DNA from: Candidatus Thorarchaeota archaeon
GTDB taxonomy: Archaea > Asgardarchaeota > Thorarchaeia > Thorarchaeales > Thorarchaeaceae
Direction: 5' to 3'
Length of the DNA: 64,000 nt
NCBI GenBank assembly: GCA_011364905.1
Contig: RDNZ01000006.1
Location: 34,865 to 98,864 of the forward strand
Under the pieces are notes generated by a model, which ran no database searches, was not told the origin of the DNA, and saw only the letters and a program-made list of their open reading frames with translations. Each line of letters begins with the position of its first letter. Position 1 is the first letter of the stretch. The translations under genes were made by a program, and so were the position numbers. Positions 33,123-57,221 of the stretch are shown piece by piece.

Positions 33123-34091
33123 ATGCAGAGCTTAATTGCAATGGCGGCACTGTTGAGAGAGATATCATTTGGAATACTGATAGCTGGATTAGTCTACACG
33201 TTTGGATTGTTCGCGCTAGGAAGACTCTTTGCCGCTATTTCTGACCATGGCTCATTTGACCATGATGTTGATCATGACATAGATCATGATGTTGACCACG
33301 ATATCGATCATGGCGTAGACCATGATATTGGACATGAAGTCGACCACGACTATGACCATGATATCGGACATGAGGTCGATCATGACTATGATCATGATGT
33401 TGGACACGGATACGATGTTGAACACATAGAGGTCGATCATGACCTTGACCATGATGTTGACCACGGAGAGGTTGACCATGACCTTGACCATGATGTTGAC
33501 CACGATATCGATCATGGCGTAGACCACGATGTAGATCATGGTGTAGACCATCACATTGAACATGATCATGACATTGATGTCCATCATGAAGTCCCAGTTG
33601 ACAAATCAGGATACTTTGAAACTGAACGCGGTGCACCAATGGGTGTTACGATAGGAACCTCACTTGTCACCTTTGGTTTTTTGGGCTCTATTCTTTATTA
33701 TGAGGGAATCATGTTCCCACTTGTTGGAAAACTGGCTGTTCATTTCATTAGCGTTGCAGTATTGGTCTATGCAGTGCGAAGTGTTCTCGGAAAAGTATTC
33801 GTTGAAGCTGGTTTCATGATTGAACCCAGACATTTGGTTGGCAAACAAGTAGAAGCAGTTTCGACAATAAATGATGGATTTGGCGAAATTCGAATAGAAA
33901 CTGAAATGGGGCTTCGGCGTTTCCACGCAAGGCCATTTCAGAAAGGCGTTGTGTTTCAAAAAGGAACAGAATTGTATATTGTATCAGCAGATGACAAGTT
34001 CGCCTATGTTGACCCGAGAAAAGATGTCGTCAAATGGCTTCAAAAGCAAAGCCAGAAACCTCGGGAAGAAAAGCTGACCAAGAAAGACTAG
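33123..34091 (+). CDS. NfeD/YqiJ-like membrane protein with long His/Asp-rich repeat
   Basis: N-terminal TM, DHDV repeats, 2 TMs, OB-fold LVGKQVEAVSTI..GFGEI; directly upstream of flotillin. Confidence 0.8.
   Translation: MQSLIAMAALLREISFGILIAGLVYTFGLFALGRLFAAISDHGSFDHDVDHDIDHDVDHDIDHGVDHDIGHEVDHDYDHDIGHEVDHDYDHDVGHGYDVEHIEVDHDLDHDVDHGEVDHDLDHDVDHDIDHGVDHDVDHGVDHHIEHDHDIDVHHEVPVDKSGYFETERGAPMGVTIGTSLVTFGFLGSILYYEGIMFPLVGKLAVHFISVAVLVYAVRSVLGKVFVEAGFMIEPRHLVGKQVEAVSTINDGFGEIRIETEMGLRRFHARPFQKGVVFQKGTELYIVSADDKFAYVDPRKDVVKWLQKQSQKPREEKLTKKD
33243..33590 (+). repeat. Coding 12-bp degenerate tandem repeat (D-H-D/G/E-V/I/Y/L) with an exact 38-bp internal duplication
   Basis: ~30 His in ~115 aa; CATGATGTTGACCACGATATCGATCATGGCGTAGACCA at 33285 and 33489. 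Confidence 0.9.
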
Positions 34092-34288: not shown

Positions 34289-35611
34289 ATGCAAGCAAGT
34301 ATAATGGACTGGTTCGCAAACAACATTGCGCTCTCCATCGCTTTATTGATTATAATGGTTATACTTCTGTCTTTCATCTACGTTAGAAAGTATGTTAGGA
34401 TATTCGATCCAAACATCTTCTATGTCCATTTGAGACGGGGCAAAGCGATCAAACAGGGTGAAGGAGGCATGGTAATCCGAATTCCCTTCTTCGATCGCAT
34501 CCTGGCAGTGGATAGGACCGTTCAACAGCTGAATATATCAGCTGAATCAGTCCTCTCAAAGGAAAAGCAGAAGATTCGACTAAGTGCTGTTCTTCAATGG
34601 CAGGCAGAGAATGCTATTGCCACCATAAACAATGTGATGTGGAAAGAAATTCCAAGTAGACTAACAGCAATTATTGAGTCAGTTATTCGTACAGCATGCG
34701 CTCAGTTATCAGTCGAAATGATTCTTGAAGAACGGCAGTTGATCATTGAAGCAATCAAGAAGGAACTAATCGACATTGTTTCGGAATGGGGCCTAAAGGT
34801 TGTTACTGTAGAACTGGTCGATGTCACAGTGGTCAACGAATCATTCTTGAGAGATATGTCTAAACCTCGTGAAGCTGAGATGCATCGCCTTGCGCAAATC
34901 GCTCTTATCGAGGCTGATCAGTCAACAGGCACCCGAGATATTGAGAGAAGCAAAGTCCTTCGCGAGCAGGAAATTGCGCGTGACAAGGTCATTGGTGTAC
35001 AGGAACAATCTCAGTTGAGGGACATCCAAGAGGCCGAGAAGCAGCGTGAGCAGAGTGTCCTTGAGATTGCACTTCAGAAAGACCTGATGCAGAAGAAATA
35101 CGAGAAGCAACAAGCTGAGGTTGAAGCCTCAAAAGACCTTGAAGTTGCAAAACTTGCAGCTGAAGCACAAAAACAAAGAAAGATCAAGGAAGAGGTCGAA
35201 GTCCAAGCGCAGAGGATAGTTCAAGAAGCTCAGGCTGAAGCTAACAAAATCAGCATGGTCGCTGAGGCTGAAGCAGGCCAAATCCTGAAAGTCACAAGTG
35301 CGCAAGCTGAAGGTATCAAGAAAACGCTCGAGGCAGCACGAGACTACTCTCCACAAGCCTTTGCCAGAGACTTTCTACAGATACTACCTGAGATCTACAA
35401 GCAGATAGACATTGGCGATGTCACACTGTTTGGTGGTGGAGCAGGTACAGGCGGCGTTGAAGGTGAAGAGGGCGGAGGAGGAGCTCAAGCATTCCAGGTG
35501 TTTGGCAATGTATTGATCCCGATGATGCTCATGGCACGAATGATGGGTTTTGACTTCAAGAGTCTCATGAAAGATGCACTGGGCGAGATGGCCACAAAGG
35601 ACGAGAAATAA
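34289..35611 (+). CDS. SPFH/Band-7 flotillin-like protein
   Basis: N-terminal TM, SPFH domain (IPFFD..., WGLKVVTVEL), AE-rich coiled coil (EAQAEA, AEAEA). Confidence 0.92.
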   Translation: MQASIMDWFANNIALSIALLIIMVILLSFIYVRKYVRIFDPNIFYVHLRRGKAIKQGEGGMVIRIPFFDRILAVDRTVQQLNISAESVLSKEKQKIRLSAVLQWQAENAIATINNVMWKEIPSRLTAIIESVIRTACAQLSVEMILEERQLIIEAIKKELIDIVSEWGLKVVTVELVDVTVVNESFLRDMSKPREAEMHRLAQIALIEADQSTGTRDIERSKVLREQEIARDKVIGVQEQSQLRDIQEAEKQREQSVLEIALQKDLMQKKYEKQQAEVEASKDLEVAKLAAEAQKQRKIKEEVEVQAQRIVQEAQAEANKISMVAEAEAGQILKVTSAQAEGIKKTLEAARDYSPQAFARDFLQILPEIYKQIDIGDVTLFGGGAGTGGVEGEEGGGGAQAFQVFGNVLIPMMLMARMMGFDFKSLMKDALGEMATKDEK

Positions 35612-35713: not shown

Positions 35714-35953
35714 TCACTTTACACGCTTGATGTACCAGATGAGTTTATCGCCTTCTTCAACAACCTCGAGGATTTCATTTCCAGTCCTGGAAGACCAGGC
35801 TGGAAAGTCCTTCTTGGTCCCAACGTCTGTGGCGATGACCTTCAAGATCTCGCCGACAGCAACTTCCTGAATCTCTTTCTTCGTCTTCAAAATAGGCATT
35901 GGACACCTTAGTCCGCTGGCATCAAACTCTCTTGCTACTTGATGTTCTGTCAT
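35714..35953 (-). CDS. tusA: Sulfurtransferase TusA/SirA family
   Basis: DASGLRCPMPIL, GEILKVIATD, DFPAW. Confidence 0.92.
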   Translation of the reverse strand: MTEHQVAREFDASGLRCPMPILKTKKEIQEVAVGEILKVIATDVGTKKDFPAWSSRTGNEILEVVEEGDKLIWYIKRVK

Positions 35954-36100: not shown

Positions 36101-36502
36101 GTGTACGAAATGGCACTGTTCCAATTAATTCTGTTCGTTCTACTAGCCCTGAATGTGAGCACGATGTTCTCAGGATTCATGTTGGCTAGGAGGATGGGCT
36201 ACTATCTTATGACTCAAGTCATGTTGTTGATGATAGCGATGTTTGTTAGCATTGGTGTACTGCTAGTTGGAGTTTTCTTCCCGCCAGTTCCAACAATGTT
36301 TGACTTGCTTCATATCCTACTTATTGTAGACTTCGTATTGATACTATTGGCCACACTGATGCAATTTGTAACAGTTGTTCCAATTCTTATGAAGACAATG
36401 CAGGGCGGTCCCTTCCATAGCTCTCACAACACCAACCTATTGGTGACTCTGTTCTTGCTACTTGGACTTGTCCTCTATTATGTTGAACTCGCAGTACTTT
36501 AG
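36101..36502 (+). CDS. Hypothetical 4-TM membrane protein upstream of dsrE
   Basis: Four hydrophobic helices; 13-bp gap to dsrE. Confidence 0.7.
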   Translation: MYEMALFQLILFVLLALNVSTMFSGFMLARRMGYYLMTQVMLLMIAMFVSIGVLLVGVFFPPVPTMFDLLHILLIVDFVLILLATLMQFVTVVPILMKTMQGGPFHSSHNTNLLVTLFLLLGLVLYYVELAVL

Positions 36503-36515
36503 GAGATGATATAGA

Positions 36516-36878
36516 ATGCCTAGTATTTACATAATTTCCCAGTGGGGTCCCGAAGCGGCTGAGCGATGTTTTGGTCCTTTCGTTACCGGTACCACTGCAC
36601 AAGCTCAGGATGTTGATGCTAACATCTTTTTGATGATGGATGCAGTTATGTTGGTGAAGAAGGGGGTTGCAGGAAAGGTAAAAGCGCCTGGGTTCCCTCC
36701 ACTTCCTGATTTAATCGACGCTTTCCTTGAAGCAGGTGGAAGTATTCAGGTTTGCTCCAATTCAGCAGAATTTAGAGGCATTACTGAGAAAGACTTTTGT
36801 GACCCGCGAATCGAGATTGCTGGCGCTGCCACAATGATCGATGAAACCCTCAAGCACGACAAAACAATGTTCTTCTAG
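36516..36878 (+). CDS. DsrE/DsrF-family sulfur relay protein
   Basis: IFLMMDAV, GGSIQVCSNSAEFRGI, IAGAA; GGAG upstream. Confidence 0.88.
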   Translation: MPSIYIISQWGPEAAERCFGPFVTGTTAQAQDVDANIFLMMDAVMLVKKGVAGKVKAPGFPPLPDLIDAFLEAGGSIQVCSNSAEFRGITEKDFCDPRIEIAGAATMIDETLKHDKTMFF

Positions 36879-36889
36879 AACTTCAAATC

Positions 36890-36921
36890 AGAGGGGTTCG
36901 CCCCTCTCACTTCTTATTTTT
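36890..36921 (+). terminator. AGAGGGG-TTCG-CCCCTCT hairpin with T-rich tail
   Basis: Perfect 7-bp stem, UUCG loop, TTCTTATTTTT downstream; lies between convergent genes. Confidence 0.75.
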
Positions 36922-36936
36922 GTGACTAATTTCATT

Positions 36937-38709
36937 CTAGGTCATGTAGGGATAACACTGTGTCATGAGTAGGTTCAAGACGGAACTACGGACGGAACTC
37001 TCAGAAATGAAACCGGTCAGTTCGTTTTCGCATATCTTGATGTAAGGAAGCATGGGAAGTTCTTCAACTGGAATGTCGACATCTGGATCATCAACATTGA
37101 TTGTTTCAACCATGCTTAGAGGTACCCCCAATGAGTCTAGAACTGCAGTCAGTATCTCCATTGCAGGTTCGCAGAAGACACAATGATTCGATTTGTAGAA
37201 AGTGATACAGGTTTGTCTTCCGCAGTGTAGTTCCGGAGTTTCAATCCAGAGCGGCAGCATCAGAATGAATCTTGCACCTTGGGAGTGATTTCCTTTCACC
37301 CGGTCCTCAACCCGAATCTTACCGCCTATGTTCCTAACAATCCTATCGACAAGTGTTAGTCCAAGCCCTCTCCCGACTATCTGCTCATCCGGACTTCCTG
37401 TCCTTCGAAAGATGAACTCCTTTGCATTGTCGGGGACCCCCGGTCCATGGTCTATGAACTCAATTCGGACCATCTTCACTTCTTTGACTATCTCTGCAAG
37501 AACCTCCATGTGTACGACATCTTTCTCATCAAACGTCATGGCATTGTGAAGTAGATTGAAACACACCTGTTCGAGATACTGGTGACCAGCTACCTCAAAC
37601 AGTCCTTTCTCGACATTTGTAGTCAACTCAAGTGTCTTCCACGGAAAGTCTCTCTCAACTGAATCCTTGGCAGTTTCAAGATAATCGTAAAAGTCAACCT
37701 TTGTTCTTGTTGGCGGTTCATTTGCCAACCTAAAGAGAGACCTTAGATTCGCAATCATTCTCGCAGCTCTTCTGACATTCCAGCTTGATTCATGCAGCAA
37801 TGGTCGATATTGCTCAGGAATGTCTTGGGAACTCTCCATTAGCCCTGTCGAGAACAGAAGGCTCTGGTTGACATTATTCAGATCGTGAGTCATGACTTCT
37901 AGGTATAAGTTGGCACGTTCACGCTCAACTTGCTCCCTCATTTCAGCATTCTTTCTTCTGTCAATATCAAGTGCCATTAACGCGATTGTAGATGATTGGT
38001 CGGGAACCTCCAAAAGATTCGCCGTTACACTTACCCACGTTGTTCTTCCGTCAGCAGTTTTCAACTGCAGTTCGAAGTCTTCAACACTTTTGCCATTAGC
38101 CGCTTCTGAAATCATTTGTCCAACGATTTCTTTACCGTTACCATTAGGAAGGAACGATGAGAAATTCCTTCGAAGTAAATCCTCTTCTTTGTACCCTAGC
38201 AACCTGGCTGCGGCTTTATTGACTTGCAGGACATTGCCCATTAAACTCAAGGAGAAGTAAGCTATTGGAGATGAGTCATATAATGCTCTATATTTACTCT
38301 CTGAAACATCAATCGCGGCCTCAAGCTCAACTTGATGGGATACATTGCGGACTATAGCCATAACAGCCGGCTTTCGAGAGAGAGCGAAGTCAGAGGTACT
38401 AATTTCGACATGGATAATGCTTCCATCCTTTTTCAAAAATCGGGCTCTGAAAGAGGGACGCTGAGTTTGACCCCAATTAAACGCATCCTGAACCTCACTG
38501 AATTGATGGGCTGTGGTTGGTTCCAGAAGATCAGTAACTTGCTTTCCCTCAAGACTAGCAAAATCATACCCCATCATTTCTAGAAACGCAGGATTTGCCA
38601 TGACAATCCTATCATCCTGTAATATGATGATTCCATCATTTGCCAACATCATCATGCCAAAGTATTCATCTTCGACATTGGTGGTGTTCTTGTTGGATTG
38701 ATCCTGCAA
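36937..38709 (-). CDS. PAS-PAS histidine kinase with C-terminal CxxC thioredoxin-fold domain
   Basis: Two PAS; H-box VMTHDLNN; N-box NLLHNA; G1 DHGPG; G2 GRGLGL; then FYKSNHCVFC...INVDD...LPMLP...GFIS. Confidence 0.9.
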   Translation of the reverse strand: MQDQSNKNTTNVEDEYFGMMMLANDGIIILQDDRIVMANPAFLEMMGYDFASLEGKQVTDLLEPTTAHQFSEVQDAFNWGQTQRPSFRARFLKKDGSIIHVEISTSDFALSRKPAVMAIVRNVSHQVELEAAIDVSESKYRALYDSSPIAYFSLSLMGNVLQVNKAAARLLGYKEEDLLRRNFSSFLPNGNGKEIVGQMISEAANGKSVEDFELQLKTADGRTTWVSVTANLLEVPDQSSTIALMALDIDRRKNAEMREQVERERANLYLEVMTHDLNNVNQSLLFSTGLMESSQDIPEQYRPLLHESSWNVRRAARMIANLRSLFRLANEPPTRTKVDFYDYLETAKDSVERDFPWKTLELTTNVEKGLFEVAGHQYLEQVCFNLLHNAMTFDEKDVVHMEVLAEIVKEVKMVRIEFIDHGPGVPDNAKEFIFRRTGSPDEQIVGRGLGLTLVDRIVRNIGGKIRVEDRVKGNHSQGARFILMLPLWIETPELHCGRQTCITFYKSNHCVFCEPAMEILTAVLDSLGVPLSMVETINVDDPDVDIPVEELPMLPYIKICENELTGFISESSVRSSVLNLLMTQCYPYMT

Positions 38710-38856
38710 ATCGTTTTCCGCCTAGATGCATCCAAAGTCGCCGCATCTGCTCTTGCGCTATTCATGTGTCAAGTATAATCTACATATAGATTGCTTGTGT
38801 AAATCAAGAGCAACTCCGTATTCCGCAAGGGAATTGCTTTTAAGGCCATTTTCTAT

Positions 38857-38886
38857 CATTTCAACACTTGTATAATCGTTGAAATG
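38857..38886. promoter_or_regulatory. Putative ArsR operator: inverted repeat CATTTCAAC-N12-GTTGAAATG
   Basis: Perfect 9-bp arms between TTTTAAGG (TATA-like, ~38838) and the arsR start. Confidence 0.65.
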
Positions 38887-38898
38887 TTGTGTGGGAAA

Positions 38899-39225
38899 AT
38901 GACAGCCACAAAAAAGGCATCTGAAAATCAGATTGAGTTCAAAGGCGATGAATTGAACAATGTGATAGCAATTTTCAGAGCACTCTCTGATCATTCACGT
39001 GTTCGAATCATATCGGCTCTCTCGAATAATGAGAATCTTTGCGTATCTGACATCGCCGAATTACTTGAGATGCCGATCAGTAGGGTGAGTCATCATCTCA
39101 GCACATTGAGGATGCTGGGATTTGTGAAGTCGCATCAAGATGGAAAGCAGGTCTTTTACACTATTGACGACGATTGCATTACTGACATCATGAAGAGGGC
39201 AAGAGACCATGTCGCAGGAAACTGA
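38899..39225 (+). CDS. ArsR/SmtB (CadC-like) metalloregulator
   Basis: FRALSDHSRVRII, ELCV-like NLCVSDIA, SHHLSTLR, GKQVFYT. Confidence 0.92.
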   Translation: MTATKKASENQIEFKGDELNNVIAIFRALSDHSRVRIISALSNNENLCVSDIAELLEMPISRVSHHLSTLRMLGFVKSHQDGKQVFYTIDDDCITDIMKRARDHVAGN

Positions 39226-41122
39226 AACTGCGTGTACAACCTGCGCCGCTACTGCAGGAACTGAAACCCACAAGTCAAGACAATACAAGTACAGAATGGC
39301 AGTCTTGTCAGCATCCATGCTAGTTCTTGGTATCGCTCTTGGATTCTTGAGCGCAAATATCATCCTCATTTACTGTGTATTTCTTGCCTCTATGCTATCA
39401 GCTGGACAGTTCATTCTTCCAAGAGGGGCTCGAGGATTAATGAAACTTCGACTTGACATGCACTTTCTAATGTCAACAGCGTCCATAGGAGCATTCATCA
39501 TTGGCGCTCCGGCTGAAGGCGCAGCAGTCATGTTTCTCTTCTTCATATCGATGCTACTTGAAGAAAGAGCAGAAGATCAGGTGAGGCACGAGCTAGAACA
39601 ACTCATACAATTAGAACCTCCATCAGCCACTATCAAGATGAAAGATTCTGAAGCTTGCATACCGACATCAGAGGTCATGCGGGGAGATGTTTTGATTGTG
39701 CGACCTGGAGGAAAAATAGGCCTGGATGGAGTTGTCGTATATGGCGAAACCTCAGTAAATCAAGCTCCGATAACAGGAGAGTCGATTCCTGTCACAAAGA
39801 TAATTGGGGACAAGGTGTATGCAGGGACAATAAACCAAGAGGGATACATCGAGGTCGAGGTAACCTCGAAATCAAATGAAACCGTTCTTTCAAAAATAGT
39901 AGAATTGGTAGCAGATGCAAAGAACAAGAAGGCACCGACGGAGAAGCTAATAGATAGATTCTCCCAAAAATATACTCCTGTTATGGTCACTCTAACAATC
40001 TTGCTTGGATTGGTAACATGGATCCTTGGTGCATCACCTGTCGACGCCACTTATCGTGCATTGACACTACTGGTCATCAGTTGCCCTTGCGCTTTTGTTG
40101 TATCAATCCCAGTTAGTATTGTGTCATCCATAGCAGGCTCAGCAAGAGATGGAGTCTTGGTAAAAGGCGGAATCTACATAGAGCAAGTAAGCAAGACGAA
40201 GACTGTTGCATTCGATAAAACGGGCACTCTCACGGATGGCGAGTTGTCAGTGAAAGAGGTCTGTCTACATAACAATTTCAGCAGAGAGGAAGTTCTCATA
40301 ACAGCCGCCACTTTAGAACAGATGTCTGAGCACCCGATAGCACGAGCATTGGTCGATGTAACTAAGAACGAAGACATGGAGCTAAGAGAGACTTTCGGAT
40401 TCTCTGCAATTCCAGGACTCGGCATTGAGGGTAAAATCGGAGATGCAACCTATCTCGTGGGAAACCGGAGACTCTTGATGGAACAAAGTATCATGCTGGA
40501 TGAACCTTCTAAGCATAGTTGTGGAGTAGGTACTCTAGTCTATGTTGCACAAGGCAACATGCACCTCGGGACTATTGTTTTGGCAGACTCACTTCGGGCT
40601 GGAGCAGTTGAAGCTGTGCGTGAACTAAAGAGCATGGGCATACGTACCATTATGCTCACCGGGGATAGTGAAACAGTAGCGAAAGACATAGCGCAAGAGG
40701 TTGGTGTTGATGAATACATGGCAGAGCTTCTTCCAGAAGAGAAGGTGGCTGCAATAGAGGAGATTTCAACAAACGGCTCATCGATAATGGTTGGCGATGG
40801 CATTAATGATGCACCGGCTCTCGCTACCGCAGATGTGGGAATTGCTATGGGCGCAGTTTCTTCGGATGCCGCACTTGAAACATCAGACATCGCCTTGATG
40901 CAGCAGGATCTGAGGAATGTGCCTGGTATTATCAAGAAGGCAAAAAAGACAATGAGAATAGTACGCCAAAATATTACTCTCTCAATATCTGTAAAGCTCT
41001 TCATCGGTATTTTTGCTGCCTTCGGTCTCGTGAGTCTGTGGATGGCCATTGGAATAGGGGATATGGGACTAACTTTTGCAGTAATTGCCAATGCTCTAAG
41101 ATTGGTAAGGAAAAACACCTAG
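39209..41122 (+). CDS. cadA: P1B-type heavy-metal (Zn/Cd/Pb) translocating ATPase
   Basis: TGES, CPC, DKTGT, SEHP, GDGINDAPALA; short N-terminal CTTC. Confidence 0.92.
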   Translation: MSQETETACTTCAATAGTETHKSRQYKYRMAVLSASMLVLGIALGFLSANIILIYCVFLASMLSAGQFILPRGARGLMKLRLDMHFLMSTASIGAFIIGAPAEGAAVMFLFFISMLLEERAEDQVRHELEQLIQLEPPSATIKMKDSEACIPTSEVMRGDVLIVRPGGKIGLDGVVVYGETSVNQAPITGESIPVTKIIGDKVYAGTINQEGYIEVEVTSKSNETVLSKIVELVADAKNKKAPTEKLIDRFSQKYTPVMVTLTILLGLVTWILGASPVDATYRALTLLVISCPCAFVVSIPVSIVSSIAGSARDGVLVKGGIYIEQVSKTKTVAFDKTGTLTDGELSVKEVCLHNNFSREEVLITAATLEQMSEHPIARALVDVTKNEDMELRETFGFSAIPGLGIEGKIGDATYLVGNRRLLMEQSIMLDEPSKHSCGVGTLVYVAQGNMHLGTIVLADSLRAGAVEAVRELKSMGIRTIMLTGDSETVAKDIAQEVGVDEYMAELLPEEKVAAIEEISTNGSSIMVGDGINDAPALATADVGIAMGAVSSDAALETSDIALMQQDLRNVPGIIKKAKKTMRIVRQNITLSISVKLFIGIFAAFGLVSLWMAIGIGDMGLTFAVIANALRLVRKNT

Positions 41123-41125
41123 AGA

Positions 41126-42703
41126 TTATTTGTAGGTATCAAGAGCATGCACAGATGCTGCGAGAAAGCAATAGACAAGTGACAGGGTATAAAGAGGAAG
41201 AATGACCAAGACTAAGACACTGTCAGAGTAGAATGCAACAAGAAGCACCAATAGAGCTCCAAGTCCAAGGTTTATGATTGGAAATGAGAATGCAAGTGGG
41301 ACTGGTAGTGTTTTTGGATCATTAGTAAAAACGGGGACATATGCGCCTACAGCAGTACCAGTAGCTGTAAATAGAATTGTTAAGGGAATTGCTAGGGTAA
41401 CCACAGAGAGATATCCCCCGACCTGAATGAAATAAATAAGGAATCCGCACGCAGGAATGACTGCTATAGCAACCTCAATAAGACTAAGCAGATATTTCGA
41501 AAGAACAATGTCACTTGTACGGAAAGGTGACGCCTTAAGCATATACACGTTTTCACGTTCATCAACAAAGCTAAGCATTGATGTTACACTAGCCATTTGA
41601 ATGAAGAGTATCAACATAAGAATGAAAGCTGGTACGACTGCAAACGCAAGGCGTGGTGGAATAGTCACTGAGGGAAACCATGCGGGACGAATAGTATTCA
41701 GGTAAATGACAAAGGCAGTGCCAAAAACTGCATAGATGTACTTCCAAATCTGCATAGGTGATCGAAGGCGGCTCCAGAAATCCTTTAACATTATCCACAA
41801 CATAGGGTCATTTAGTCGAGATCGGGAAAAGTCAACCTCACCATGAATTATTCTACTGAATCTGCCTTCTGTCTCTTCCCTTCCTCTAGTAGCTGAATAG
41901 ATCTCATAATGCTCGTAGCCAGTGATGTTGGCTGTAAGGAGAAGACAAATGGTGAATCCAATCACTAGAAGGATGACACCATATAATGGACTTTCTCCCT
42001 GAGCGAAAATGCCTGTGGATTCGATCAGGAACAAAGCGAAAGCATTTGATGGAGCAACATAGAGTGCTGTAAATCTTGATAGAAGATATGGATGGGCAGG
42101 CAAAAGCACGAGGACCCCTAAAACGACAACCATCAGATGGCGGATCCTTCGTTTTGTCCTTTGTGAAATCCAAAGCCGAACATATGAACTCAATGCACCA
42201 AGGAAGTAATTCGTTTCAAGGAAGATGATTATGACTATAACCAGAAAGACGGTTGAGTAGAACAGCAAACTGGCTGAAACAAGAAGGGGAAGAATAGCCA
42301 GGATACCAAGAGTCAGGAAGGATATCTTTCTGACAATTCTGCGAATATAGCGACTCAAAAAAATCTGGTGAGGTTTGACTGGAGCAGACATCATGAGGTT
42401 TTCATCATCGATGGTGAGCACAGCAGCTGGACCAAGACCAAAGTATCCACTTACCACTGAGGAGGCACTGAAAACAGCAGTGGCAGCATAAATCATCGGC
42501 GCACTAATTGTATCCTCGAGCAGGTCACCGAAATTGAAAAGAATGGGGGAAAATGATACAAGACCTGTTATGACAGAACTAACAAAGAAAACCCCGAAGA
42601 AACTGACACCGTAAAAGAGGAGCATGGACGGGGTTGTGATTGTTTGTTTGAATTGATTGTACAACATGCGAATCTCATTCTTCATGAGTTTGTATGTTGA
42701 CAA
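41126..42703 (-). CDS. ABC-2 type exporter permease (duplicated membrane domain)
   Basis: ~12 TMs in two halves, LMMSAPVKP and MLKASPFRT motifs; downstream of the ABC ATPase. Confidence 0.8.
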   Translation of the reverse strand: MSTYKLMKNEIRMLYNQFKQTITTPSMLLFYGVSFFGVFFVSSVITGLVSFSPILFNFGDLLEDTISAPMIYAATAVFSASSVVSGYFGLGPAAVLTIDDENLMMSAPVKPHQIFLSRYIRRIVRKISFLTLGILAILPLLVSASLLFYSTVFLVIVIIIFLETNYFLGALSSYVRLWISQRTKRRIRHLMVVVLGVLVLLPAHPYLLSRFTALYVAPSNAFALFLIESTGIFAQGESPLYGVILLVIGFTICLLLTANITGYEHYEIYSATRGREETEGRFSRIIHGEVDFSRSRLNDPMLWIMLKDFWSRLRSPMQIWKYIYAVFGTAFVIYLNTIRPAWFPSVTIPPRLAFAVVPAFILMLILFIQMASVTSMLSFVDERENVYMLKASPFRTSDIVLSKYLLSLIEVAIAVIPACGFLIYFIQVGGYLSVVTLAIPLTILFTATGTAVGAYVPVFTNDPKTLPVPLAFSFPIINLGLGALLVLLVAFYSDSVLVLVILPLYTLSLVYCFLAASVHALDTYK

Positions 42704-42717
42704 AAACCAAGCACCTC

Positions 42718-43641
42718 CTATTCAGGAATTCCTCCGGTCAGGTTGAGAAAGATTTCCTCAAGGTTTGCAGCTTCAGGATGCTGCTTTCTAAGTTGGTCAT
42801 AAGAACCTCGTCCAACAATGTCACCTTCATTCATTATCACGAATCTATCACACAGGTCAGCTGCAACCTCAAGGATATGTGTGGAGATGAGAATCGCCGA
42901 TCCAGTATCTCGTAGTTGCCGTAGTAGTTTCTTGAGATTCCAAGCCCCTCTTGGATCTAGTCCGTAGATTGGCTCATCGAGCGCAAGAACAAAGGGAGGT
43001 TCTCGGGAGAAGATGCCGATCAGGAGGGCACGCTGCAAATTGCCTTTGGAAAGAGTTCCAACGTATGAATCAATGAACTCGTCGAACTGAAACAAATCGA
43101 CAAACTCTCTCATCCTGATTAAGGCGGTTTCCTGGGGGACACCATATATGCGTGCTGTAAACATGACATATTCTCGAGCAGTCAGACTGGGATAACATGT
43201 TGGTTTCTCGGGGATATATCCAACTCGCTGCTTTGCAAGAATAGGCTCTTTCTTTAGATCGTGTCCATTAACTTGAATGAACCCACTAGTCGTGCGGATT
43301 ATTCCTGTCAGCATTCTCAGTGTCGTTGTTTTCCCTGCTCCGTTTGGTCCAACAAGTCCTACGATTTCGCCGGGATTGACTTCAAGATCAAGACTACGAA
43401 CTGCAGTCTTCTTTCCAAATCGTTTAGAGACCTTTTTGAGTATGATTGCAGGAGATTCCAAGATTACAGGAGGAACAGAGAGCTCATCTCGTTTTTCCAA
43501 CTCCTTCATGAGCTCATCAATAAGCCAACTCCGCTTTATCGTTCGTTTGAAAATGGGGATGTTTAGAACACGAGCAAGACGTATTAGCTCCTCGCCACGC
43601 ATTCTTTCAACATCGGTTCTAGCTGTCACAGACGGTTTCAC
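42718..43641 (-). CDS. ABC transporter ATP-binding protein with extra N-terminal helical domain
   Basis: GPNGAGKTT, LSKGN, LDEP, STH. Confidence 0.92.
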   Translation of the reverse strand: MKPSVTARTDVERMRGEELIRLARVLNIPIFKRTIKRSWLIDELMKELEKRDELSVPPVILESPAIILKKVSKRFGKKTAVRSLDLEVNPGEIVGLVGPNGAGKTTTLRMLTGIIRTTSGFIQVNGHDLKKEPILAKQRVGYIPEKPTCYPSLTAREYVMFTARIYGVPQETALIRMREFVDLFQFDEFIDSYVGTLSKGNLQRALLIGIFSREPPFVLALDEPIYGLDPRGAWNLKKLLRQLRDTGSAILISTHILEVAADLCDRFVIMNEGDIVGRGSYDQLRKQHPEAANLEEIFLNLTGGIPE

Positions 43642-44563: not shown

Positions 44564-45172
44564 GTGACACGTGTTCTACTGGTTGATGACGATATTGAGC
44601 TCCTTGATATAGCGAGGATACTATTTGACCAAAAAGACCCTGATTTAGAACTGGTTGTTTCCTCATCGGTCAAGGATGCACTACAGAAATTAGAAAGAGA
44701 AAATTTTGACATTGTTATTTCTGACTACTTGATGCCAGATGCCTCAGGGTTGGACTTGCTAGAAGCGCTTCGTGAAGGCGGAGACGACATTGGATTCGTA
44801 ATGTGGACCGGACACTCGAACGAAGAAATCGCCATCAAATCGTTAAACCTTGGTGCGGATTACTACATTCTCAAAGGCCAGGATTACCGAAACCAGTTCT
44901 CCATTATTCAGGAGAAAATCAAGAGTGTCTTAAGCAGGAAATCACATGCGGAACTTCCTGTCATAAAACAGGAAAAAGCGAGCAAGTTCATACACAAATT
45001 ATCGCATGACATTATCGGGGTCGCTCAAAATATTATGGGGTATGCAACGCTTCTGGAAGAAGAGAGCAATCCGAAGTATATTGAGGGAATTAGCAGGCTT
45101 TTAGCGAAGCTCGATGACAGAGTTAAAACTGCTGTCACACAAGTCGACGACGGTTTGCTAAATGAAAAATAG
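44564..45172 (+). CDS. Response regulator receiver fused to a HisKA-like (DHp) helix pair, no ATPase domain
   Basis: VLLVDDD, SDYLMP, TG, GADYYILK; then LSHDII..AQNIMGYA; ORF ends about 50 aa later. Confidence 0.85.
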   Translation: MTRVLLVDDDIELLDIARILFDQKDPDLELVVSSSVKDALQKLERENFDIVISDYLMPDASGLDLLEALREGGDDIGFVMWTGHSNEEIAIKSLNLGADYYILKGQDYRNQFSIIQEKIKSVLSRKSHAELPVIKQEKASKFIHKLSHDIIGVAQNIMGYATLLEEESNPKYIEGISRLLAKLDDRVKTAVTQVDDGLLNEK

Positions 45173-54942: not shown

Positions 54943-55380
54943 TCACTTAGTATATCGTGGTTCCAGACCCTCAAACCATGGTGCGACCTTTGTATCATCC
55001 ACTCTATCAGAAGAGGGGAGATATGGTTTGATATCGATAATCGGCGAACCATCTTTCGCATCCATGTGATCGATCTTAAGACGCTTGCTTTCAGTTTCTA
55101 CCGATTCAAGCATGACAATAGTGTGTCCTATAGGATTTGGTCTCAATGGTGTTCTACAAGAAAAGGCGCCTGAGGGTTCTTTCCCTTTTCCTCTTGGTGG
55201 ATTTGAAAGAAGAGTACTACGATCCTCTTTTGTATCACGTTCATGTATCCACCAGAGAACAATCAGATGAGAGAACAGTTCTACATGCACAGTCGCATCC
55301 CAGAATTCGGGATCAATAACAAGATAGATACCATCGTCGTTCTTCTCTACACGACCAATAGGATGGATATAGTAGTCCAA
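54943..55380 (-). CDS. tsaA: tRNA (N6-threonylcarbamoyladenosine(37)-N6)-methyltransferase TrmO/TsaA
   Basis: HPIG, FSHLIVLWW, GAFSCRTPLRPNPIG, DGSPIIDIKPY; TTG start after GAGGTGA. Confidence 0.88.
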   Translation of the reverse strand: MDYYIHPIGRVEKNDDGIYLVIDPEFWDATVHVELFSHLIVLWWIHERDTKEDRSTLLSNPPRGKGKEPSGAFSCRTPLRPNPIGHTIVMLESVETESKRLKIDHMDAKDGSPIIDIKPYLPSSDRVDDTKVAPWFEGLEPRYTK

Positions 55381-55481
55381 TAATGTCACCTCTACAAGAT
55401 AGGTGGGGAATTCATACTGATTAATACGACTATAGATTGCTACTATTCTCCGGCCACGTGGCAAAACCATAGAGTCCAAGT

Positions 55482-57221
55482 TCACCCTGACATCAATAGC
55501 ATTGACGTGATTTCAGCTCTCAGGTCATCTTCAGAAACATATCCAGCAATCTGTTTGCTGCCCATGTGAATAGTTGGAAGAGCAGGTAAATCTCCTTCAG
55601 CAACACCTGATGCAGGGTCATCAACATTGATGAGATTGATAGTTGATGGACTAATATTCATCTCTGCTAAGACTGCAGTTAGAGACTCCAAGACCGGACT
55701 ACAAAATACACAATGTTCAGATTTGTAAAACACAATCGGAGGAATCTTGAGCTCTTCCTTCCATACTGGCAATAGCAAAACGAACCTATTGCCTTTTGTC
55801 GGATCAGATGGGTTTCTATCTTCAACCCATACTCTCCCGCCCAGATTTTCGATATACCTGTCAACAACAATTAATCCAAGACCCTTCCCTGCTAATTGTG
55901 CCTCAGGATCTCCATCTCGCCTGAAAATCTGGTCCTTGAGATCATCAGGAATTCCAGGACTATGGTCTAGAAATTCGATTCGGACCATGTCGCCATCTTC
56001 AGTGCTAGCAGCCGTAATCTCAAGTTTTACAGTAGTATTCGGATCTTCACTCGCGCAGTAGTGTATAATATTGAAGAAGATATACCACATGAAAGCATGA
56101 CCCACAACATCAAACGACTGCTTGGGAATGTTCGATTCGATATCAAGAGTTTTCCACGAGAAGTCTCGTGTAGCCTCTCTAACAGCTTTATTGAAATGAG
56201 GCTGAAGGCGTGTTTCTACCTTTTCGGGAGGCGATTGGCCAAGTGAAATCAGCACGCCCATGTTGGCAATCATTCTGCCTGCACTTCGAACACTCCAAGC
56301 TGTTTCACCTAAGAGACCTCGGAGACGGTCCGGAAGGTCAAGCGAGATAGTCAGGTCCTCCAGAGCAAACAAAACATTCTGGTTAGTCATGTTCAAGTCG
56401 CTACTCATGACCTCCATGTACAAGTTTGCCCGTTGACTCTCGTGTCTGAGTCTAGCCTCCACAGCGCGCCTGGAGGTCACATCAAATGCAGTGAGTCCGA
56501 TTTCGCTTAACTTCTCGGTTCCTGATGAAAGAGGACTTGAGGAAATATTGGTCCAGATGATCTTTCCGTCCCCTCTCTTCATCTGAATCTCTAGACCTCT
56601 GACAGCTCTCCCTCGTAGGGCTTCTTTAACAATGTCTGCACCTGGGTCATACCGAGGTTCTGGATCCGGTAGAAATTCAGAGAGTGATTTGCCAATGAGC
56701 TGATCAGCTTCACAGCCAAGCAACTCCTCAGCCGCAGCATTCACTTGCTCAATGTTGCCATTCCGGTTCAGAGTGAAGTATGCAACAGGAGACATATCAT
56801 ACAAAGTAGCGAAGCGGTTCTCCAGCTCGGAAACTGCTGCTTCAAGCTCCATCTGAGTTGTGACATTTCGAATAGTAGCAATGACAGCAGGCGAGCCTTT
56901 CAGTTTGATCTCTATTGGAGTAATTTCAACATGAAGAATCTCATTATTGCTTGATACCAGACGAGTGTTGAATCGAGTCGAGTCTTGACCGGTAGTAAGT
57001 GCCTCAATCATATCTTGGTCGCGCCTTCGAGACATTGGCTCGACGAGTTCCACGAAAGGCATGTCAAGAAGGTCTTCTTTCTTGAATCCAAGCATATCAG
57101 TGAACGCACTATTTGAGAGAATAATGTCCTCATCCTGAATGACCACAAATCCATCTCGGACAACTTCCATGACCTTGTGTAACCAAGATGTTTCGTCATT
57201 CGTATCAGGCACTTGTGACAC
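55482..57221 (-). CDS. PAS-PAS pseudo-histidine kinase with C-terminal CxxC thioredoxin-fold domain
   Basis: Collinear paralogue of 36937..38709, but H-box VMSSDLNM (no His), N-box NIIHYC, G1 DHSPG; tail FYKSEHCVFC...INVDD...LPALPTI...GYVS. Confidence 0.88.
   Translation of the reverse strand: MSQVPDTNDETSWLHKVMEVVRDGFVVIQDEDIILSNSAFTDMLGFKKEDLLDMPFVELVEPMSRRRDQDMIEALTTGQDSTRFNTRLVSSNNEILHVEITPIEIKLKGSPAVIATIRNVTTQMELEAAVSELENRFATLYDMSPVAYFTLNRNGNIEQVNAAAEELLGCEADQLIGKSLSEFLPDPEPRYDPGADIVKEALRGRAVRGLEIQMKRGDGKIIWTNISSSPLSSGTEKLSEIGLTAFDVTSRRAVEARLRHESQRANLYMEVMSSDLNMTNQNVLFALEDLTISLDLPDRLRGLLGETAWSVRSAGRMIANMGVLISLGQSPPEKVETRLQPHFNKAVREATRDFSWKTLDIESNIPKQSFDVVGHAFMWYIFFNIIHYCASEDPNTTVKLEITAASTEDGDMVRIEFLDHSPGIPDDLKDQIFRRDGDPEAQLAGKGLGLIVVDRYIENLGGRVWVEDRNPSDPTKGNRFVLLLPVWKEELKIPPIVFYKSEHCVFCSPVLESLTAVLAEMNISPSTINLINVDDPASGVAEGDLPALPTIHMGSKQIAGYVSEDDLRAEITSMLLMSG

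Follow-up and report, generated by a model that had tools for sequence, protein, structure and literature searches.

A histidine kinase with a C-terminal thioredoxin module, conserved throughout an Asgard archaeal family, is a candidate thiol-gated kinase

A 64,000-nucleotide stretch of a Candidatus Thorarchaeota genome (GenBank assembly GCA_011364905.1, contig RDNZ01000006.1, positions 34,865 to 98,864; this whole stretch is called the window below) encodes a sensor histidine kinase, HK1, that ends in what profile homology identifies as a divergent thioredoxin domain. HK1 occupies 36937..38709 on the minus strand as an uninterrupted open reading frame of 590 amino acids plus stop, in which two PAS domains, a dimerisation and phosphotransfer (DHp) region, an ATP-binding domain (HATPase_c) and the thioredoxin module follow one another. 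An earlier sequence-only reading of the window had proposed this PAS-PAS-kinase-thioredoxin architecture; the Pfam matches (PAS twice, HATPase_c) and the profile homology of the tail confirm it. The fusion is a core gene of the archaeal family to which the window belongs. We tentatively propose that HK1 may be a thiol-gated, possibly zinc-thiolate-gated, kinase, a reading that we prefer among those weighed below and hold to be plausible, if somewhat short of probable.

The module at the C-terminus spans residues 496-590 (36940..37224, minus strand). We place it in the MJ0307 branch because of profile matches, a profile-profile comparison and the alignment of its active-site residues, and it would be best described as a divergent, six-Cys sister branch and not as a curated member. 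A profile of the HK1 tail and 33 short family members (34 in all; A1) found its best PDB matches in MTH895 (1nho, E = 5.9e-7) and MJ0307 (1fo5, E = 6.8e-6), followed by a glutaredoxin (7c10, 9.4e-6) and human Grx2 (~5e-5). The profile matched 76 chains at E <= 10, and 59 of the 60 listed are named as thioredoxins, glutaredoxins, related oxidoreductases or designed thioredoxins, the sole exception being eIF5A (E = 0.58). Compared by hhalign with 12 classical small thioredoxins from Asgard genomes (A2), A1 aligned over 85 columns with a probability of 99.4% (E = 3.4e-21), and the A2 profile itself matches MJ0307 (1fo5) at 2.3e-21. The sequence-only reading had named the MJ0307/MTH807 type; MJ0307 stands, MTH807 is absent among the listed matches, and the Methanothermobacter match is instead MTH895.

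Models from curated databases recover the family through its other members. The NCBIfam model TIGR00411 ('MJ0307 family thioredoxin') matches 22 of the 34 A1 sequences (best E = 1.6e-7), and at E <= 0.1 the Pfam models Glrx-like and Glutaredoxin match 20 and 16 of them; for the last 100 residues of HK1, Pfam gives sub-threshold Glutaredoxin and Glrx-like matches only (E 0.02-0.3). In alignments to 1nho and 1fo5, Cys510-x-x-Cys513 falls on the active-site CxxC with which helix 1 begins, and Pro555 (37045..37047, minus strand; an invariant column in A1) falls on the proline preceding strand 3, the cis-proline of the solved thioredoxins. The tail carries ITFYKSNHCVFC, ETINVDD, LPMLP and GFIS, and every motif quoted in the sequence-only reading, these as well as NLLHNA, DHGPG and GRGLGL of the kinase, is present in HK1. 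A chance CxxC in a disordered tail is ruled out by the homology of A1 to PDB thioredoxins and to A2.

Upstream of the tail, HK1 looks like a catalytically competent kinase. On the minus strand, PAS domain 1 covers residues 24-124 (38338..38640; Pfam PAS_9) and PAS domain 2 residues 139-252 (37954..38295; Pfam PAS/PAS_4). They are followed by a DHp-like helix region (37705..37947) with the H-box EVMTHDLNN and the putative phospho-acceptor His275 (codon 37885-37887), and by HATPase_c at residues 379-487 (37249..37575; PF02518), which scores 58 bits against a cut-off of 26.4 and has N, G1 and G2 boxes reading NLLHNA, DHGPG and GRGLGL. His275 is 99% conserved in 107 aligned full-length homologues, the three boxes are likewise conserved, and a separate comparison found His275 in all 14 further HK1-type rows. 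The Pfam HisKA model has no match in HK1 at E <= 1, so the DHp assignment comes from the H-box and its position only. Pfam finds no Response_reg match in the protein, which is thus not of the hybrid kinase type. An eight-residue linker, WIETPELH (37225..37248, minus strand), delimited by the alignment of homologues, joins the catalytic domain to the thioredoxin module. Translation may start at TTG (38709) or at an ATG located 18 codons further on; orthologues of 572 amino acids also occur. The first cysteine of the protein is residue 383, and LOV- or NreB-type cysteine chemistry in the PAS domains is thereby ruled out. Cys383 itself is a weak candidate for a conserved mixed-disulfide partner, being only 72% conserved.

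The tail contains six cysteines (496, 501, 510, 513, 560 and 585), in keeping with the earlier observation of extra cysteines: four lie beyond the CxxC. The active-site motif Cys510-Val-Phe-Cys513, preceded by His509, maps to 37171..37185 on the minus strand. Conservation of CxxC among orthologues had been set beforehand as a test by which the proposal could fall, and the motif is present in all 118 fused homologues (C-V-F-C in 92, C-L-F-C in 12, C-I-F-C in 10 and other forms in 4) and in all 20 further copies fetched from genomes. A His directly before CxxC is a fusion-specific feature: 114 of the 118 fused proteins have it, as against only 2 of the 34 stand-alone relatives and 8 of the 44 Heimdall-type kinases described below.

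The four auxiliary cysteines are Cys496 and Cys501 (CGRQTC; 37207..37224) at the boundary of linker and strand 1, Cys560 (37030..37032; invariant in A1) where the strand that follows the cis-proline ends, and Cys585 (CYP; 36955..36957) after the last helix, all on the minus strand and placed by alignment. Each is 97-98% conserved in the fused set, and they are kept or lost as a set: all six tail cysteines occur in 148 of 171 aligned domains, the nine domains with Gly or Ala at the Cys560 position are missing Cys496, Cys501 and Cys585 too, and 17 paralogues of the HK2 type (see below) have either all four (7/17) or none (10/17). In the thioredoxin topology, strand 3 is the antiparallel neighbour of strand 1. 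With Cys501 opening strand 1, Cys560 closing strand 3, Cys496 in the entering linker and Cys585 after the last helix, all four would by this topology gather at the pole opposite the active site. An alignment to human Grx2 (2cq9) sets Cys501 on Grx2 Cys28 and Cys585 on Grx2 Cys113, which hints at proximity; the literature confirms that the two Grx2 residues lie outside the active site. Presumably they form a disulfide in the crystal structure, a point for which the literature search gave no confirmation.

A word-seeded search with residues 485-590 recovered 103 proteins of 324-1033 amino acids that share the HK1 tail at 55-88% identity. The named ones are all labelled Thorarchaeota, Sifarchaeia, Lokiarchaeota or Promethearchaeota and are called 'PAS domain S-box protein'. 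Since the precomputed Pfam lists of all 103 contain no thioredoxin-type family, the module evidently escapes routine pipelines. The six-Cys tail family is narrow: phmmer over 1.84 billion cluster representatives gave only 63 matches at E <= 0.001, namely kinase-fused proteins of ~580 amino acids, stand-alone proteins of ~105-130 amino acids and three long repetitive proteins (P0133, P0134, P0144), which we take as spurious and not as true relatives of the tail.

At the level of genomes, the A1 profile matches 217 of 301 sampled genomes of the phylum and 76 of 76 genomes of the window's family, with 1-8 matches in each of the latter (E <= 1e-5). Seven copies of the domain are encoded in the genome that holds the window (3.08 Mb, 81% complete): five are stand-alone, and the two fused to kinases both lie in the window. 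With the whole protein as query (E <= 1e-80), the fusion turns up in 71 of the family's 81 genomes, in 16 of 16 genera and in 22 of 23 high-quality genomes. Among the whole-protein matches listed, nearly all extend to residue 580-590; most genomes have two copies, usually with one paralogue that is without the phospho-acceptor His. Those distant fused representatives that have a name are labelled Thorarchaeota, Hermodarchaeota or Promethearchaeota. Two contigs from different runs of one sediment study bridge the junction of HATPase_c and tail: X1 over 36583-37289 with no difference, from a run that may be the source sample, and X3 over 36874-37429 with one difference. The breadth of occurrence (71/81) and these contigs rule out an assembly chimera.

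The second fused copy in the window, HK2 (55482..57221, minus strand; 579 amino acids), was found by profile search, and domain and alignment checks gave the same PAS-PAS-kinase-thioredoxin layout. Its H-box reads VMSSDLN, with the phospho-acceptor His replaced; the N-box Asn and one G1 Gly are replaced as well (NIIHYC, DHSPG). HK2 is without the four auxiliary cysteines and retains CVFC. The HK2 stop codon overlaps the start of a TrmO-like gene (54943-55485). Twenty further second copies from 11 genera comprise three HK1-like proteins with the His and 17 of the HK2 type, all of which have another residue at the His position (Ser in 10, Gln in 2, Asn in 2, and Thr, Arg and Lys); in a separate comparison the His275 position was replaced in five of six HK2-type copies. 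The N box is mostly kept in HK2-type copies and G1 is kept in many, while G2 is often altered. Because His-less copies keep CxxC, the motif is more tightly constrained in this lineage than the phospho-acceptor is. It is a possibility that HK2 forms a heterodimer with the active kinase HK1. In a tree of the domains, the fused tails form one cluster (SH-aLRT 83, weak) within the six-Cys family (93), and the two-Cys fused tails form one clade (99), a topology that fits a single fusion followed by duplication.

Thioredoxin modules have entered other Asgard signalling proteins as well, as the A1 profile showed when applied to five genomes of other Asgard families. One of these genomes encodes a PAS-Trx-PAS-HATPase_c kinase (L056:919-2922, plus strand) whose thioredoxin reaches PF00085 at 29.7 bits (cut-off 23.5). 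Forty-four protein clusters have this layout (P0174-P0217), the named ones mostly labelled Heimdallarchaeota; a thioredoxin family of Pfam (PF00085 and/or PF13192) is among the precomputed matches of 42 of the 44, and CVYC occurs in 43. Here the thioredoxin is of the classical two-Cys type and internal, between PAS domains and upstream of the kinase core. Kinase-thioredoxin fusions are therefore not unique to HK1. Other combinations include a pair of V4R domains behind an N-terminal thioredoxin in two further families (L060:1366-2964, plus strand; L061:220-1806, minus strand), a thioredoxin followed by a domain of no recognised family (L054), and, in another family, a small GTPase of the Ras/Arf type that ends in a thioredoxin with CDFC (L063:525-1382, plus strand). 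The GTPase has seven related clusters, one labelled as a Heimdallarchaeota 'ADP-ribosylation factor-like protein'. In the domain tree, these fusions group with classical two-Cys thioredoxins, apart from the Thorarchaeota tails. Because the Heimdall-type and Thorarchaeota modules occupy separate branches, the kinase-thioredoxin fusion probably arose at least twice.

Stand-alone members of the wider family have contexts of their own. In three Asgard families, KaiC-like ATPase genes immediately adjoin the gene of a two-Cys stand-alone thioredoxin (L014, in the genome that holds the window, L055 and L057), and a fourth family has a KaiC-like gene ~700 nt from one (L064). L014 and L055 also contain a Roadblock protein and a small GTPase. 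Some stand-alone relatives of the HK1 tail carry further cysteines, as CxxCxC before strand 1, CxC in a loop and CFC at the end, in a pattern that looks like metal binding. The window's own genome has such six-Cys proteins at L010:1471-1803 and L012:1459-1815 (both plus strand), others occur at L017-L035, and their extra cysteines suggest a second metal site. The L010-type gene is convergent with a conserved 159-amino-acid gene in 19 of 19 loci and follows a flavodoxin-like gene in 10 of 19.

In the mechanism that we favour, HK1 would be a soluble cytoplasmic sensor kinase with two PAS inputs, a DHp region bearing His275 and an intact ATP-binding domain, to which a redox-type thioredoxin module is tethered by only eight residues. 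The auxiliary cysteines, which would cluster where the kinase linker enters the module, would form a Cys4 metal centre (most likely with zinc) or a disulfide pair. Oxidation and reduction of the CxxC, together with loss and gain of the Cys4 centre, would then shift the module on the ATP-binding domain, and this shift would switch autophosphorylation, or trans-phosphorylation in a dimer with the His-less paralogue. We count for this thiol-gated reading the conserved kinase architecture, the thioredoxin identity of the tail, the proximity hint from the Grx2 alignment, the retention of CxxC without the phospho-acceptor His, the covariation of the Cys4 set, the conservation of the fusion throughout the family and the Heimdall-type layout, in which the module stands on the input side and so favours a role in sensing.

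Several points weigh against thiol gating. The C-terminus of a kinase is the usual place of output or receiver domains, not of sensors. HK2-type copies are without the His and retain CxxC, and therefore the module must have a role beyond gating the His of its own chain. The clustering of the four auxiliary cysteines and the contact of the module with the kinase core are both inferred from sequence. Taken alone, the HK1 tail reaches no curated cut-off among TIGR00411, PF00085, PF13192 and PF00462: it has no TIGR00411 match at E <= 0.1 and remains below the Pfam thresholds of Glutaredoxin (E 0.017-0.019, 15.6-15.8 bits against 22.9) and Glrx-like (15.2-15.4 bits against 26). The cysteine and conservation counts come from related genomes and sequences and are not independent events, and the domain tree was a quick one, short and poorly resolved, with weak support (SH-aLRT 83) at its key fork. 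Finally, a 227-nt contig from a mangrove RNA library, identical to 37880-38106, gives a weak hint of HK1 transcription and may be DNA carry-over. RNA contigs of X14 covered nothing beyond this interval, which is uninformative in either direction.

Instead of gating the kinase, the tail might dock a partner, either a KaiC-like ATPase or a stand-alone six-Cys protein, much as SasA does, with the CxxC perhaps capturing it by a mixed disulfide. Candidate partners exist: the genome has five stand-alone relatives of the tail, two-Cys relatives are neighbours of KaiC-like genes in the loci described above (adjoining in three, ~700 nt away in the fourth), and the same contig carries a KaiC-like gene with receiver genes some 11-12 kb ahead of the window. 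Retention of the module by the His-less paralogue is compatible with a binding role, and SasA offers a precedent in which a thioredoxin-like domain recruits KaiC. The CxxC is invariant in the HK1 family, however, whereas SasA and KaiB do not have it. The tail has no KaiB match in Pfam at E <= 1, and no KaiB or SasA chain is among the PDB matches listed; nor is there a KaiC-like gene next to the kinase in 24 loci, in a search that used the window's neighbours, not KaiC, as queries. We consider docking unlikely.

Alternatively, the module could be the output of the kinase: PAS signals and phosphorylation state would control a thioredoxin acting as a disulfide reductase on its targets, in place of a response regulator. 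The module stands at the C-terminus, where hybrid kinases bear receivers, and its CxxC and cis-proline are intact. A locus search with HK1 alone gave six close relatives and otherwise three unrelated bacterial PAS kinases. Synteny in the six was too near to be informative, and we used instead 18 loci of other genera, whose kinases are at 38-52% identity; these comprise 15 of the HK1 type, two of the HK2 type (L042, L050) and one (L049) that is HK2-like by its His-less H-box and equally similar to both paralogues. None of the 18 has a receiver domain near the kinase. Within the window no response regulator adjoins HK1, the nearest receiver domain lying ~6 kb away inside a 306-amino-acid open frame (44573-44887, plus strand); only two close relatives keep it at this distance. 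Yet the genome has nine receiver-domain matches (and 18 HATPase_c matches), which could serve as ordinary partners; a His-less paralogue would not be regulable through phosphorylation of its own His, and the Heimdall-type thioredoxin stands on the input side. The output role thus seems to us decidedly unlikely.

The gene neighbourhood bears on two further explanations. Divergent from HK1 is a gene that passes the ArsR/SmtB metalloregulator model (38884-39225, plus strand), overlapped by one for a P1B-type ATPase of the Cd/Zn family (39209-41122, plus strand), which passes the Cd-family model TIGR01512 (484.6 bits against 313.5) and remains below the cut-off of the Cu model (385.3 against 397). 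On the other side, a DUF5400-like membrane protein (36101-36502, plus strand) and DsrE (36516-36878, plus strand) are convergent with HK1, and TusA (35714-35953, minus strand) lies beyond them. All six close relatives keep ArsR, the ATPase and DsrE in the positions that they have in the window; TusA is found in four, of which L001, L003 and L006 have the full set and L004 is without a membrane-protein match, while in L002 and L005 DsrE is present and the contig then ends. Among the 15 HK1-type loci of other genera, the kinase has ArsR beside it in 11, the ATPase in 10 and DsrE/TusA in four (L044, L047, L051, L053), with DsrE/TusA 3.7 kb off in L046. The operon of ArsR and the Cd/Zn-type ATPase is thus the most conserved neighbour of HK1, with TusA/DsrE found only in some genera, and on these adjacency counts the link to sulfur carriers is weaker than that to metal efflux. 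Either link could be inherited synteny.

Metal efflux beside the kinase raises the idea of a sensor for thiophilic metals, in which the Cys4 set, perhaps with His509 and the CxxC, would bind Zn, Cd or a similar metal and report metal stress in connection with the ArsR/P1B-ATPase operon. The proximity of that operon in the window, in the close relatives and in most HK1-type loci of other genera agrees with this idea, as do the models that its two proteins pass and the covariation of the Cys4 set. Synteny within one family may, however, be plain inheritance, and the operon has a metal sensor of its own, with a palindrome at the ArsR start some ~150 nt from the start of the kinase. Moreover, stand-alone six-Cys proteins occur in unrelated contexts (flavodoxin, the 159-amino-acid gene) and the Cys4 set is missing from many HK2-type copies, and we regard a metal-sensing role as very doubtful. 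That palindrome is a perfect 9-nt inverted repeat with a 12-nt spacer (38857-38886) overlapping the ArsR start codon, and the ArsR-kinase spacer holds a shorter one with 6-nt arms (38777-38792); the two are possible ArsR operators.

A sensor of persulfide or sulfane sulfur working with TusA and DsrE is the least probable of the readings, and we think it most improbable: the set of TusA, DUF5400-like protein and DsrE flanks the kinase in the window and recurs in the four close relatives and four loci of other genera named above, but it adjoins only 4 of the 15 HK1-type kinases there (with one more at 3.7 kb), is absent where ArsR and the ATPase are kept (for example in L037, L038, L041, L043 and L045), and includes a DsrE gene convergent with the kinase and not co-transcribed with it.

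Further features of the neighbourhood deserve mention in their own right. The genes at 41126-43641 (minus strand) encode a 525-amino-acid multi-pass membrane protein without a family match and an ABC ATPase; both belong, with the ArsR/ATPase pair and the kinase, to a block conserved over many genera of the family. At 33123-34091 (plus strand), directly upstream of an SPFH/Band 7 gene (34289-35611), a 322-amino-acid protein without a Pfam match has long Asp/His-rich repeats (DHDVDHDIDHD...) between membrane segments and may bind metal.

A broader proposal, and one we consider rather unlikely as a whole, is that Asgard archaea repeatedly built MJ0307-type thioredoxins into signalling proteins (at the kinase C-terminus in Thorarchaeota, between PAS domains in the Heimdall type, at the C-terminus of a Ras-like GTPase, before V4R domains and in KaiC-like operons), and that HK1 and HK2 form a heterodimeric switch in which the CxxC dithiol and a Cys4 centre of the zinc-thiolate kind would set kinase output directly from the thiol redox state of the cell. 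Such a switch would give the closest archaeal relatives of eukaryotes a hard-wired layer of thiol-redox signalling. Hardly any signalling proteins of Asgard archaea have been characterised, and HK1, conserved through a whole Asgard family and currently annotated, like its relatives, merely as a 'PAS domain S-box protein', is a good target: it is predicted to be soluble, has ~590 amino acids and offers mutational handles in H275, C510/C513 and the Cys4 set. The His-less paralogue, the independent Heimdall family of kinase-thioredoxin proteins and the GTPase-thioredoxin fusions supply a comparative framework.

The sequence-only reading had not recognised the architecture as one already described, and our full-text literature search likewise found no paper on it; the main text of a census of archaeal two-component systems (PMC5847659) is silent on kinase-thioredoxin proteins. 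Thioredoxin appears in that main text only in fusions of a receiver with thioredoxin reductase, from Heimdallarchaeota and Mycobacterium. As presented there, these regulators resemble HK1 in tying two-component signalling to the thioredoxin system in Asgard archaea, and differ in that the fused signalling partner is the response regulator, joined to the reductase and not to a thioredoxin (PMC5847659). Closer at hand, the Heimdall-type PAS-Trx-PAS kinases are likewise Asgard PAS kinases with an MJ0307-like module, but their thioredoxin is internal, recognised by Pfam, of the two-Cys type and on another branch of the domain tree. Among characterised small thioredoxins, MJ0307 (1fo5) and MTH895 (1nho), of the TIGR00411 family, have the same minimal fold of ~85 amino acids, and three landmarks of the HK1 tail align to them: the CxxC that opens helix 1, the cis-proline and the Gly that follows strand 4. 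Their motif is C-P-x-C, whereas that of HK1 is C-V-F-C, and the HK1 tail is fused to a kinase, has four extra covarying cysteines and, alone, falls below the curated cut-offs.

SasA of Synechococcus has an N-terminal, KaiB-like thioredoxin-fold domain without CxxC that binds KaiC. It is like HK1 in being a histidine kinase with a thioredoxin-fold signalling module; the module of HK1, in contrast, is C-terminal, with an invariant CxxC and no KaiB-family match. In zinc-thiolate switches such as the zinc finger of E. coli Trx2, Hsp33 and RsrA, four cysteines hold zinc and release it on oxidation. The site in Trx2 is a separate N-terminal CxxC-CxxC finger beside the thioredoxin fold, whereas the putative metal site of HK1 would draw its cysteines from separate parts of the fold (ahead of strand 1, behind strand 3 and beyond the last helix). 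The thiol-switch kinases ArcB, RegB/PrrB and the archaeal MsmS/RdmS belong to the functional class that we propose for HK1: oxidation of Cys controls their activity, through single cysteines in linker, DHp or sensor domains, and none is known to have a complete thioredoxin domain. Known thiol-sensing kinases use isolated cysteines, and a whole thioredoxin domain welded to the ATP-binding domain, as HK1 appears to have, would be a different and directly testable way of coupling redox state to phosphorylation.

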